Source: an uncultured Pseudobdellovibrionaceae bacterium (GTDB taxonomy: Bacteria > Bdellovibrionota > Bdellovibrionia > Bdellovibrionales > UBA1609). From it: DNA of 64,000 nt. Of the stretch, positions 22,777 through 45,910 are shown one piece after another. Location: contig CAYMDP010000008.1 of the NCBI GenBank assembly GCA_964389375.1, positions 17,985 to 81,984 on the forward strand, in the 5' to 3' direction. Under the pieces are notes generated by a model that was not told the origin of the DNA, searched no databases, and saw nothing but the letters and a program-made list of their open reading frames with translations. Each line of letters opens with the position of its first letter. Within the stretch, counting starts at the first letter, position 1. The position numbers and the translations under genes were made by a program.

Positions 22777-23652
22777 TCAAAAGTCCTGAATATGCTGGAC
22801 TAGGTCTGGATGGTCGATGAAGGGGTTACGAACTTGCTGCACTCTAAAAATCTCTTCGTGGCGCGTTCTTTCATACTCGTCTACTGGATCGATTTTATGC
22901 CACTCTCTTAGCTCTTCTTCTTCCCCATCTTCGATTTCGAGTTGATATCGAGTGGCGAAGTAGAAAATGGCTCGAGCGACATTTCCTTTATGGCTTCGCG
23001 GGGGTTCAAAGACAAGGCTGCTTGGGTCCCTGCGTGCAAGGCCTCGTTTCGAATCGGGGCAAGTCGATGTTCTGGAAGTTTGAACGACTCCGAAAGGCAA
23101 GTTTCCCCTTTGGGTGTTGGTGCTTGCCGTCGTTGGAAAGAGGGCATGAAGATCTGATTTTTGTAAGCCCGTCTCGTAGTTACGATTGAATCGACTCTGG
23201 GGCCAAGTGTGCTCAGCATTGATGACTCGTGGGTCAGGTGTGCGACCAGGTCCTGGGCCTTGGTTTTTTGGAAAATCAGCAGAACTGTATTCGATGTTGC
23301 AATAGACACAGCTGATAAAATACTTGGAGCCTTTTTTATTTAAGTGAAGAGTGCCAAACAATTCTTTTCGGGCAGAGTTATAAGAAAAATATTGGTGAGA
23401 GACGCAGTCTTGATTTGCGGGGCAGCGCTCAAGAATCAAATCGCCTTTTCCATTCTGCGGTATATGAAAGCGCGAAAGAATCCGGTAGAGCTTGTCTTTT
23501 AGTACTTCGTCCAAGGCTTCATTTTGATTTTGAGTCTGAAGTAAAGAAAACTCGGAATAAAATTCGTCACCGTAATAGGGGATTTTTGGATTGAGGCCCG
23601 CAAAGCTAGTGCTAGTCCACAGAAACAGAGCAATAAGCAGGTGAAGTCTCAT
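22777..23652 (-). CDS. Secreted endonuclease I family DNase
   Basis: Signal peptide, EHTWPQS, NTQRGNLPFG and C-terminal VRNPFIDHPDL, all typical of EndA/Vvn-type endonuclease I. Confidence 0.8.
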   Translation of the reverse strand: MRLHLLIALFLWTSTSFAGLNPKIPYYGDEFYSEFSLLQTQNQNEALDEVLKDKLYRILSRFHIPQNGKGDLILERCPANQDCVSHQYFSYNSARKELFGTLHLNKKGSKYFISCVYCNIEYSSADFPKNQGPGPGRTPDPRVINAEHTWPQSRFNRNYETGLQKSDLHALFPTTASTNTQRGNLPFGVVQTSRTSTCPDSKRGLARRDPSSLVFEPPRSHKGNVARAIFYFATRYQLEIEDGEEEELREWHKIDPVDEYERTRHEEIFRVQQVRNPFIDHPDLVQHIQDF

Positions 23653-23753
23653 GAACCCTCCATAGTTTTCAGAGATTCCTGAGCTTCAGTTTATGCAGTT
23701 TTGTTATGTTGGCGGCAATTCACGTACAATACAGACCAAATCTTGACCTAAAA

Positions 23754-24056
23754 CTAGACTTTAGTCCTTGGATTGTGGATATCTTGAATCAAAACAAAGG
23801 GGCTGATGATTAAAAAATAGAACTTAGGAGATCGAGCTTCAAAGTCTTCGACATCTTCTAGCCCTGGCTTTTTAATCCAATTTTTTTGAATCAATTTTTC
23901 GACCTCTTCTTTTTTGTCTTCGGCTAAAAGAAGACCCACATCGACCATGTCGAGGTTGTGGTCGACCAGGACAAGAGATCCTCTTGTCAAGTGGGTTTTC
24001 AAGTCTGCCCAGTCCACTTCGCACAGTTCTTCAGCAAGCTTCTTTTTTAAGTCCAT
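23754..24056 (-). CDS. Small cytoplasmic protein, DUF2288-like
   Basis: 100 aa. The pattern W..L..H..RG.L..V...LD.V.VG...A.D......W.....I.KP......F...IISPFVLIQ is recalled from the DUF2288 family. Confidence 0.45.
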   Translation of the reverse strand: MDLKKKLAEELCEVDWADLKTHLTRGSLVLVDHNLDMVDVGLLLAEDKKEEVEKLIQKNWIKKPGLEDVEDFEARSPKFYFLIISPFVLIQDIHNPRTKV

Positions 24057-24059
24057 TTA

Positions 24060-24217
24060 GGATCTGTCCTCATTTCGCCGTACCTCTAATTCGTTTAATT
24101 TTGAGTCGGAGCTTCGTTGCTCCTCCTCGAATTGCCCGAGGGCAGTCCTTCGTCGTCGCGCCTCGCTCCACCTCAAACTAAAACAAATTAGAGGCACGGC
24201 GAAATGAGGACAGACCC
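24060..24217. repeat. Long imperfect palindrome (element B): 32-bp terminal inverted repeats around a ~94-bp self-complementary core
   Basis: Left arm 24060-24091 is ggatctgtcctcatttcgccgtacctctaatt. Right arm 24186-24217 is its reverse complement with 2 mismatches. Pairing continues into the core. A 13-nt direct repeat taggatctgtcct occurs at 24058-24070 and 24218-24230. Confidence 0.8.
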
Positions 24218-24235
24218 TAGGATCTGTCCTTTTTT
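24208..24235 (+). terminator. Intrinsic-terminator-like hairpin with a T6 tract
   Basis: Stem ggacaga (24208-24214) / tctgtcc (24223-24229), loop ccctagga, then TTTTTT (24230-24235). The 5' half of the stem is also the end of the element B right arm. Confidence 0.45.
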
Positions 24236-24265
24236 GAGTCTGGCGCCCTTGCGCATTTTAAATTT

Positions 24266-24295
24266 TTAACGGCATATTTTCTTTTTGGGTAGAAT
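24266..24295 (+). promoter_or_regulatory. Candidate sigma70-type promoter upstream of the helicase gene
   Basis: TTAACG (24266-24271), an 18-nt spacer, and TAGAAT (24290-24295), 38 nt upstream of the 24333 start. Confidence 0.3.
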
Positions 24296-24332
24296 ATTAT
24301 TTACTTGTTCGAGCTCAGCTGGTTAAGGTTCA

Positions 24333-26399
24333 TTGGCAAACCCTACTTCCAAAAAAGACATCATGAACTGGCTGAATGGTCTAAATCCCGAACAACAAGA
24401 AGCCGTGCTTCATAATGAAGGGCCGATGCTGATCCTTGCCGGAGCGGGTTCAGGTAAAACTACGGTTTTGGTTTCGCGCACAGGGCGCTTGGTCGAAGAG
24501 GGGCTTGCTCGGGCTTCCGAAATAAAAGTCATGACCTTTACAAATAAAGCCGCCCGCGAACTCAAAGAGCGTGTGTCTAAACGTCTTGGTAAGGCCGGCA
24601 AAGATCTGTGGGCGGGGACCTTTCATTCCTTTGGCCTTGAGTTTTTAAAGCTCCATGCAAAGCATACAGGGCTTCCCGCAAGGTTTGGTGTCATCGATCA
24701 AGCCGATGCTGGCGGAATTTTAAAAGAGCTTCTTCGGGATATTACCCACTCTGAAAAAGACGCCTTTGATTTGGATCGTCTTTTAAAAATGATGAGCCAA
24801 TGGCGAGAAGATGGACAGACGAAGGCAAAAACCGAAGAGCCTTACGAACAGGTCCTCGAAATTCTTTTGCCAAAATATTTAAAAAAAATGCGCCAATTGG
24901 GCGTGGTCGATTTTGACGACTTGATTCTTTGGCCACGCAGGCTGTTAAAAGAAAATGAAGAACTAAAAAGCCAAACACTCGAGACCTTGAAGTTTTTGAT
25001 GGTCGACGAGTTTCAGGATACAAACCGGGCCCAAATGGACCTAGTGCGAGAGCTTTTAGGTCCAGAGCATAACCTCACCGTCGTCGGCGATGATGATCAG
25101 GCCATTTATGGTTGGAGGGGTGCAAAAATTGAAAACATTTTGCATTTTCCAAGAAATTTTAAAAAATGTCGTGTCGTTCGTCTTGAAAGAAATTATCGCT
25201 CAACTCAAGAAATTCTAAACCTTGCAAATGCGATTATTTGTAAGAATGAAAACCGCCATGGAAAAACTCTGCGGCCTCACGCCACTCAGGCTGGAAGTTT
25301 GCCAGAGCTTTTTGTTTATCAGTCCGAAGAAGAAGAAGCGGATGAGGTGCCTCAACAGGTTCGGCATTTTCAGCGGATGGGGTACCAGCTGTCGGATATG
25401 GCGATTTTATATCGATCAAATACTCAAGGGGGCTTGATCGAAGGCTCTTTAAGACGAAATCAAGTGCCCTACCTGATCTCGGGTGGTTTTCAGATCTTTG
25501 ATCGAAAAGAGGCCCGGGATGTTATGGCCTATCTTCGAGCCGCTCTTTACTACGATGAGTTGTCTTTGCGCCGAGTGATTCAAGTCCCTGCGCGTGGGAT
25601 CGGGGATGTGAGTCTTGATGTCATTCAGAAATCACAAACTGCAGGTAAAATTTCTTTCTGGGCGGCATTGGGCCAGGCTTCGAGCATCGGGGTCGGTGAA
25701 AAGCAGCAAGAGTCCATTCGCGCCTTTATTTTGGATCTTGAGAAGTTAAAGACCAAACTTATTTCTGGCAAGGGAAGCATCCAAGAAGAATGGAACGAGT
25801 TCTTTCGAGAGATCGGCTATTGGGATTATCTTCGCACGCTTCATAAAAAAGCCGATTCGATTGGAAAGCATTGGGAGGTTGTCGAAATCGTCGGAAGGAT
25901 TTTAGCCTCTTTTACTGAGCAGGGTGGACGCAGCCTTGAATCCCTGAAGGATTTTTTGGACAAGATGAGTCTGCGTGACGCGGACTCAGAGAAGGAGAGC
26001 GAGAACTCTCTTCAGATGATGACTCTTCACGCAAGTAAGGGTTTAGAGTTTCCAGTGGTGATCTTGGTCGGAGTGGATGAGGATGTTTTACCCCATCGAC
26101 GCTTAGGACTTGATATCTCAGAAGAGCGTAGGCTTTTTTATGTTGGGGTGACTCGTGCTAAAGAGAAACTGCTTATGACAAGGTCTCGCCAGCGGCGTCG
26201 GCATGGACGGCCTCAACCGGCTGTGGCCTCAAGATTTATTCTCGAAATTGATCGCAAACTATTAGATGTCAACGAGACCGGGTTTCGAGCCGTAGCGGAA
26301 GATGACCGTAAAGCGATGTTGAGCGGATTGTTGAAGAAGCTTAATGATAAGTCAGACAAGCAGAAGGTCGAAGAGGATCAGTGGGGTGAAGGGGTCTGA
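24333..26399 (+). CDS. UvrD/PcrA/Rep-family ATP-dependent DNA helicase
   Basis: LNPEQQEAV, ILAGAGSGKTTVL (Walker A), MVDEFQDTN, YRS..EIL, MTLHASKGLEFPVV and YVGVTRAK. The start may be TTG 24333 or ATG 24363. Confidence 0.9.
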   Translation: MANPTSKKDIMNWLNGLNPEQQEAVLHNEGPMLILAGAGSGKTTVLVSRTGRLVEEGLARASEIKVMTFTNKAARELKERVSKRLGKAGKDLWAGTFHSFGLEFLKLHAKHTGLPARFGVIDQADAGGILKELLRDITHSEKDAFDLDRLLKMMSQWREDGQTKAKTEEPYEQVLEILLPKYLKKMRQLGVVDFDDLILWPRRLLKENEELKSQTLETLKFLMVDEFQDTNRAQMDLVRELLGPEHNLTVVGDDDQAIYGWRGAKIENILHFPRNFKKCRVVRLERNYRSTQEILNLANAIICKNENRHGKTLRPHATQAGSLPELFVYQSEEEEADEVPQQVRHFQRMGYQLSDMAILYRSNTQGGLIEGSLRRNQVPYLISGGFQIFDRKEARDVMAYLRAALYYDELSLRRVIQVPARGIGDVSLDVIQKSQTAGKISFWAALGQASSIGVGEKQQESIRAFILDLEKLKTKLISGKGSIQEEWNEFFREIGYWDYLRTLHKKADSIGKHWEVVEIVGRILASFTEQGGRSLESLKDFLDKMSLRDADSEKESENSLQMMTLHASKGLEFPVVILVGVDEDVLPHRRLGLDISEERRLFYVGVTRAKEKLLMTRSRQRRRHGRPQPAVASRFILEIDRKLLDVNETGFRAVAEDDRKAMLSGLLKKLNDKSDKQKVEEDQWGEGV

Positions 26400-45220: not shown

Positions 45221-45910
45221 AGAATATTTCCTTTAGCACATCGTCTAAAATGAGTTGAGGCACAGAAAAAATTTAAATAGGGAAATAAATTTGCACGAGG
45301 CTATTAGGCTAGACCGATAGGTTTTTGTCTTAGAATACTATTGGTTTATAGCCTAGTTCCTAAAGGATCAAGACTCATAGAAGGTAAGAGCAAAGCAAAA
45401 TAAAAAGTGGTCGAAAGAAGGCTTTGCGCAAGTGATCTGTTTTTAAAGAGGCCAGAATTTTAGAAAGGTAGACTTCTAAATTAAAAATGGGGGAGGGGGA
45501 GAATCCGCTTTTTAATTGGCTTTGCAGCTTTGTCTGCGCAAAAATATCCGAGGGTTTAATGCCCATCCACTTTAAAGAATGCTTGGGGGATTTTAAGTTT
45601 AGGCTTGAGGTCCCGAGGCCTTCAAAATTGAATGACTGAAGTCCCTGTGCGGTCAATCCAAGAACTAAAATTAGGCTTGCGAGGAAGGCCTTCATAGAGA
45701 GCCAGTCTAGCATTGAGGCCTTGTTTTGCAACCGGACATTTCGAATTGAGGACAGGCCCGAGTCTCATTATAAGATGTTCATAAGAAAATTCTGACGAAT
45801 AGGGGCCTGTCTGGGCCTGCAAGACTTCAGTCACAATTCGAAAAAGCCGATGAAAACTAAAGGGATTAAAGAGCCTTAAGTCTAATTTTGAGACAAGACG
45901 GAGTGATAAA

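Follow-up and report, generated by a model that had tools for sequence, protein, structure and literature searches.

The DUF2288 gene of this uncultured Pseudobdellovibrionaceae bacterium is preceded by a hairpin of about 160 nt, which raises the question of whether a structured RNA, a regulatory switch or a mobile element lies in front of the gene. All three had been proposed in an earlier note, made from the letters of the window (the whole stretch of DNA analysed here, 64,000 nt). The MITE-like insertion, whose ends are the same as in an IS5-family insertion sequence (IS), is the candidate that stands, while the sRNA and the switch do not. We conclude that positions 24060-24217, together with the flanking TA dinucleotides, very probably represent a non-autonomous MITE carrying the terminal inverted repeats (TIRs) of a small IS5-family IS (IS5_3). 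As an orphan IS5-family MITE the element is a known kind of object, and it is a new family of this kind; our literature search found no description of it.

The hairpin itself is real. The arms described earlier, 24060-24091 and 24186-24217, pair over 32 bp with two mismatches, and a repeat search of the window lengthened them to 55 nt (24058-24112 and 24165-24219) at 87% complementarity. The postulated rod of about 160 nt corresponds to a 162-nt imperfect palindrome at 24058-24219. Folding of both strands gave energies far better than those of shuffled controls, with -87.7 kcal/mol for the plus strand (z -10.6) and -107.3 kcal/mol for the minus strand (z -14.0). The element of ~162 nt contains no credible ORF, and a search of Rfam 15 with window positions 23500-24800 on both strands returned 0 matches at E ≤ 1.

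The genome assembly to which the window belongs (G000; 2.96 Mb in 100 contigs, 99.8% complete) contains six full-length copies with 85-89% identity and about 10 decayed copies, which are internally deleted, reduced to mini-hairpins made of the two ends, or left as solo ends. The copies are found on different contigs, at unrelated intergenic sites and next to different neighbours. They form a dispersed family of many copies, the outcome that the earlier note had named as favouring a selfish MITE over a regulatory role. When aligned, the copies end in (C/T)TAGGGCGTGTCCTCATTT ... AAATGAGGACACGCCCTA(G), and most of them, including the focal one, are flanked by TA. Relative to the consensus TAGGGCGTGTCCTCATTT, the focal copy shows three differences at its left end and two at its right end.

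Alignment of the copies and the TA flanks allowed us to divide the focal element into segments, all read on the plus strand. One copy of the 2-bp target-site duplication, the left TA (24058-24059), is followed by the left TIR GGATCTGTCCTCATTT (24060-24075; family consensus GGGCGTGTCCTCATTT), the left half of a fast-evolving stem segment (24076-24091) and the family-conserved inner left arm (24092-24117). The apex is formed by an asymmetric core at 24118-24165, in which pyrimidine-rich flanks surround a small covarying hairpin and which contains the strict core signature CTCCTCGAATT-N13-AGTCCTTCGTCGTC at 24123-24157. The inner right arm (24166-24186), the right half of the fast-evolving segment (24187-24201, complementary to 24076-24091) and the right TIR AAATGAGGACAGACCC (24202-24217) lead down to the right TA (24218-24219), which the element has in common with an abutting solo end.

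These segments differ in how strongly they are conserved. Pairwise identity between the six copies is 95% in the central core, 91-93% in the inner arms (left 93%, right 91%) and 82-85% in the TIRs; in the 16-nt stem segment beside the TIR it is 60-63% (left 63%, right 60%). Despite this divergence between copies, the 16-nt segment is complementary at 15-16 of 16 positions within every copy. We infer that in the lineage of active copies the ends, inner arms and core would be needed in sequence, and the rest only for pairing. This pattern of constraint points to a folded single-strand step, or to a docking site, during propagation. The variable stem segment was also considered as a guide or as a copy of a target, and was rejected since its matches in the genome are no more frequent than chance.

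Further relics of the family were seen in the same genome. At window positions 45741-45761 lies a solo right-end remnant (CGAATTGAGGACAGGCCCGA), close to which no partner end is present. Copies of a sister sub-family that has the same core are found at G000:C10:65130-65300, C40:3670-3840 and C5:42140-42305, in each case inside a small repeat, GGGCCGCCCTGCGAAAC ... GTCTTCGGCGGACAC. As this small repeat also occurs without the element on contigs C2 and C57, the two are nested repeats.

The 18-mer consensus TAGGGCGTGTCCTCATTT, which includes the TA, is the exact TIR of IS5-family insertion sequences. A scan of metagenome contigs found the exact 18-mer in more than 120 stretches. In 28 metagenome stretches it bounds on both sides an element of 843-902 bp with a transposase inside, encoded in two frames, DUF4096 followed by DDE_Tnp_1. 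The transposase ORFs pass the curated threshold of NCBIfam NF033580 (IS5_3, 'IS5 family transposase'), and TA flanks were present in 5/5 inspected metagenome IS copies. We take this small two-frame partner IS to be IS427-like in terms of the ISfinder groups. IS5_3-type transposases are also carried by 38 of the 384 genomes of the window's order. One of these hosts, G008, belongs to the window's own taxonomic family and contains a 879-bp IS in at least six copies with exactly this TIR and CTAG/TA flanks. Other genomes of the order have close variants of the TIR, and all seven order IS copies with this TIR type (7/7) are flanked by TA. The MITE is thus like an IS5_3-type IS in its identical 18-nt TIR, TA included, and in its TA flanks. 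Unlike such an IS it measures 158 nt, has no ORF and has an unrelated interior: beyond the TIR it shows no similarity to the IS interiors and is not derivable from them by internal deletion.

The same ends also bound other short elements. Different short elements on these ends were found in 43 further metagenome stretches. At L267, L270, L274 and about 30 other metagenome loci, a 172-175-bp non-coding element combines the 18-nt TIR with a different interior; it is frequent in metagenomes of marine and other origin. These data also contain mini-hairpins of 51-63 bp that are built of the two ends.

The window's genome yielded 0 matches each to PF01609 (DDE_Tnp_1), PF13340 (DUF4096) and NF033580 (IS5_3). 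Orphan MITEs are common, and a partner transposase in the same genome is not a defining requirement. Several potential mobilisers were considered and rejected. An IS630-type transposase does not fit, as G000, G249, G246 and G036 contain no DDE_3, and in G304 and G384, where it does occur, the copies lack matching ends. A nearby IS4/5 fragment is bounded by ends of a different kind. An autonomous copy was sought in G000 and in the Polyangia genome G384, and no end pair in either encloses a transposase. Among the genes next to 113 core copies, no transposase family recurred, and the large clusters were frames running through the repeat itself. Plasmids, phages and viral contigs, covered by a vector search, gave no match to the element.

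We read the element as an insertion at a TA that lies one base before the start codon of DUF2288. It abuts a mutated solo left end of its own family, and the copies in this genome are probably old orphans that had been mobilised in trans. The rod results from the long complementary arms, the GAGGA in front of DUF2288 from the TIR, and the terminator-like hairpin from the junction of two ends across the TA. The element belongs to a wider set of foldback MITEs of ~160-165 nt, which have a common core and arms that differ between families but are internally complementary. What had looked like a riboregulator at this locus would be a false lead, with the rod, the 'terminator' and the buried Shine-Dalgarno (SD) motif representing the anatomy of a transposon relic.

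Signs of mobility come from other genomes. A sister family is present in ~105 copies in the Polyangia genome G384, where one CTAG is common to adjacent copies, as would result from repeated insertion into a TA regenerated at the element end. In G249, two genes are separated by a 232-nt spacer that contains a copy with the same ends and core; the corresponding spacer of the congener G246 has 106 nt and no element. The two loci are only 73-78% identical, and the exact insertion junction is not readable from their comparison. For the focal copy no empty site was found: the closest DUF2288 homologue in the family shows 42% identity and no synteny, and a metagenome scan returned no close relative. 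Insertions have no preferred orientation with respect to the genes beside them (19 versus 24).

The DUF2288 gene (23754-24056, minus strand; PF10052, E 4.4e-26, residues 2-92 against profile positions 1-91) has its ATG at 24056-24054, 1 nt from the TA of the element. The endonuclease I gene lies downstream of it on the same strand (22777-23652; PF04231, Endonuclease_1, E 4.3e-36). On the other side of the element, a divergent gene for a UvrD-type helicase (24333-26399, plus strand; assigned by its helicase domains) has a promoter-like site of its own outside the element (TTAACG-18-TAGAAT, 24266-24295, plus strand). The GAGGA that had been noticed upstream of DUF2288 is present within the left TIR (24071-24067, minus strand) at a spacing of 10 nt to the ATG. 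It is the only SD-like motif for DUF2288, and the relic now provides the sole putative ribosome-binding site of this gene. The statement that the rod buries this motif is correct as a folding prediction: with the whole element in the leader, its modelled probability of being unpaired is 0.0. A transcript that begins inside the element is predicted to leave the motif 0.2-0.8 unpaired. With a DUF2288 transcript that begins upstream of the element, the SD would be buried in the rod, which could cut translation or attract a double-strand RNase. We regard the predicted burial as an incidental effect and not as a designed switch.

An exapted MITE would be the most serious alternative at this locus. 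The element would then act as a cis-regulator of DUF2288 and endonuclease I, its leader rod hiding the SD until it is opened or cut, e.g., by RNase III. The position of the TIR-derived GAGGA and its predicted full pairing fit this idea. A long leader is plausible because neither the element nor the minus strand between it and the helicase gene yielded a promoter-like site. Two more copies abut start codons. At G000:C12:23438-23600 a response-regulator gene (MARAEKIKVLIADDD...) has an ATG that includes the last base of the element, and the TIR GAGGA lies 9 nt upstream; the second case is the G249 locus L062. However, adjacency to start codons is not enriched overall, with 5/218 TIR ends compared to a control rate of 4.4%, and the arrangement in front of DUF2288 is not conserved in relatives. 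We therefore rejected the TIR as a general portable ribosome-binding site and consider exaptation at this locus rather unlikely. In a further copy, G000:C3:110254-110417, a glycosyltransferase-2-like gene apparently starts at an in-frame ATG of the TIR (MRTRPK-LSLIIPT...), with a GGAGG in the element's stem 9 nt upstream of it. This looks like a chimeric N-terminus made by insertion.

The IS5-family MITE reading leaves the apical core to be accounted for. This asymmetric core of ~45 nt also tops other hairpins of the window's genome that have unrelated arms. The strict 25-base signature occurs in 10 of the 384 genomes of the order, patchily distributed over eight families, whereas a reversed-pattern control gave 0. 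Among species-representative genomes it is present in more than 113 stretches, whose labels include Bdellovibrionia, Pseudobdellovibrionaceae, Polyangia/Myxococcales, Elusimicrobiota, Acidimicrobiales and Longimicrobiales. The elements that bear it are about 160-165 nt long and most are bounded by CTAG. Hairpins of this kind thus far include members from Bdellovibrio-like bacteria, Myxococcota and three more phyla. The MITE lineage is documented only in uncultured Bdellovibrio-like, myxobacterial and other genomes, and its partner IS family was identified via metagenomes. In two Acidimicrobiales MAGs (L113:3001-3151 and L120), a single core-bearing hairpin sits in seemingly the same gene neighbourhood, which could mean that it was fixed long ago and did not insert recently.

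In an alignment of 21 diverse members from five phyla, the core is invariant and the arms covary. Pairing was found at 94% of the stem cells, compared to 70% in shuffles; when the partners were slid, the value was 27-46%. Double-sided changes numbered 158 versus 51. The outer helix shows such changes at 20 of its 21 pairs. This is expected of matched ends for different transposases, because the outer helix is the TIR. The middle arms are on average 74% complementary within elements, compared to 45% between families. Neither the complementarity of the arms over 55-60 nt nor the conservation of a ~45-nt core across phyla is explained by a DDE transposase that binds the termini. Stem pairing is of the Watson-Crick type, with G.U at only ~1% of stem cells. 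In one orientation, A.C mismatches outnumber G.T (26 versus 11; p 0.02, sign test p 0.065), and the mismatches in excess are those that would be potential G.U pairs on the strand opposite to the core orientation. This asymmetry gives a faint hint of a strand-specific single-stranded phase. Selection at the RNA level was rejected, given that the asymmetry is weak and orientation unbiased.

The conserved apex and the compensating arms thus pose the question of whether an IS5-type transposase or a host factor needs the folded form. The observations suggest that core and fold matter for propagation. More specifically, the core, the constant length of ~160-165 nt and the complementary arms could reflect either a folded single-strand step or host-factor docking that is needed for copying, with the module being kept while the ends are swapped to match different IS5-type transposases, or a host-level RNA role of the core. 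We offer this proposal tentatively and consider it less likely than not.

A multi-copy family of structured non-coding RNAs, in which the conserved apical core binds a protein or a target, would account for the retention of the core while the arms covary, for the very low folding z-scores and for the slight excess of mismatches that could be G.U pairs on one strand. It sits poorly with the TA boundaries and IS5-type TIRs of the copies, the sharing of TA between tandem copies, and the existence of truncated and solo-end remnants. Nor is the structured sRNA of the earlier note supported by an Rfam match at E ≤ 1, by an orientation bias, by the share of G.U pairs or by a conserved promoter or terminator across the family. 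We judge this reading to be improbable.

Even less probable is a REPIN-type element for which a RAYT (Y1/HUH) transposase would mobilise the single-stranded hairpin. The hairpin is kept by compensatory changes, as described for REPINs, and the window's genome does contain two RAYT-like genes. Each of them lies between units of a separate REP, of which 20-35 copies are dispersed. Neither REP, however, resembles the arms or the core of the element, no copy brackets a Y1 gene in the genomes searched, and the element shows a TA duplication and TIRs identical to those of a DDE-type IS5 element. At G000:C31:15981-16898 (L081:1142-2059), a RAYT-like Y1 transposase gene of 270 aa lies between inverted 38-nt REP units (GAGGTAACAGTTCCCTTTCCCCGTC), of which about 20 inverted doublets are spread across the genome; this is a classical REPIN-RAYT system. 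The second RAYT-like gene, G000:C11:9529-10319, lies between 26-nt REPs (AGGTGCCCGTCGTATTTTTGCGTAAC), and about 35 further sites of this REP are dispersed and clustered, e.g., on contigs C24 and C16.

The MITE with its abutting solo end also accounts for the direct repeat and for the terminator-like hairpin at the right end of the rod. The 13-mer TAGGATCTGTCCT occurs twice, at 24058-24070 and 24218-24230, as had been reported, and as 18-mers the two copies are 89% identical in the repeat search. It had been read as a possible target-site duplication, which is wrong: the duplication is TA, and the downstream 13-mer belongs to a mutated solo left end that abuts the right end of the element. This remnant, GGATCTGTCCTTTTTT, occupies 24220-24235 on the plus strand and matches the left TIR at 14 of 16 positions. 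A weak continuation of it, corresponding to element positions 42-63, is not significant, with 33 of 500 shuffles reaching the score. The focal end variant TAGGATCTGTCC recurs, with the same ATC variant, in a solo end on another contig (G000:C7:23431-23448), which shows that the 13-mer is part of the element rather than a random target.

The right TIR, the TA and the solo left end together form the terminator-like hairpin (24206-24235, plus strand), a 9-bp stem at 24206-24231 followed by T6. The T-run originated from a CA to TT change in the TCATTT of the TIR, in the solo left end. The hairpin is a by-product of the way in which right and left end meet at the TA they share, because any such junction forms a palindrome of this kind. 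Folded alone, it reaches -14.6 kcal/mol. Of the competing terminator that had been described earlier, the site and the mutually exclusive geometry are confirmed; a balanced alternative to the rod is not. In the plus-strand ensemble the rod has -88.7 kcal/mol compared to -76.8 kcal/mol with the terminator enforced, a cost of 11.9 kcal/mol, and the probability of the terminator pairs is ~0. A locus-specific attenuator, in which rod and terminator hairpin alternate to control transcription, is hence the least probable of all the readings: the two pairings exclude each other and hairpin plus T6 fits the terminator consensus, but the left arm is transcribed first, so that the rod forms before the third copy of the 13-mer exists, neither a gene nor a promoter-like site was found upstream on the plus strand that would need terminating, and two abutted element ends explain the arrangement.

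Several known repeat families resemble the MITE described here. Correia elements (CREE/NEMIS) are associated with a TA duplication and with processing by RNase III. The present family is like them in being a short non-coding MITE with long TIRs that lies beside genes, forms a long hairpin when co-transcribed and can supply expression signals to its neighbours. In Neisseria, Correia elements measure 104-157 bp and carry an IHF site and promoters (PMC3184786). Unlike them, this family has a conserved asymmetric apical core, spans several phyla and has no predicted outward promoter; the likeness is one of description. ERIC is an intergenic imperfect palindrome with TA at its termini that alters mRNA fate when transcribed (PMC3184786). 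The element shares with ERIC/MITEEc1 of enterobacteria the imperfect palindrome of similar size and the TA at both termini. It differs in carrying IS5-family ends, ERIC being assigned to IS630 by the name MITEEc1_IS630 (PMC11602168), and a blastn search of 5,426 E. coli genomes gave no match at E ≤ 0.01 that would make it a member. With REPINs and their RAYTs it has in common dispersed hairpin repeats whose arm complementarity is kept by compensatory change; its terminal sequences differ, it duplicates TA, and it is not associated with a RAYT. Finally, REP2 of Neisseria and inverted repeats of Borrelia carry an RBS and an ATG (PMC3184786). In a similar way the end of the MITE supplies the RBS of an adjacent gene, and at G000:C3:110254 probably also the ATG. 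In contrast to those repeats, this is an occasional accident of insertion and not an enriched arrangement.

The Polyangia genome with the sister family harbours another abundant repeat. This repeat measures at least 900 bp and is present in more than 40 copies (e.g., L230:1-1100, L202 and L204), which cover the upstream region and the 5' part of a gene for a 1078-aa GAF/histidine-kinase protein; many of them lie at contig ends. A long repeat fused to one end of the element had been considered as a candidate for the autonomous partner and was set aside when it proved to represent the 5' part of histidine-kinase genes. Two copies of the repeat of at least 900 bp are fused to a left arm of the MITE.
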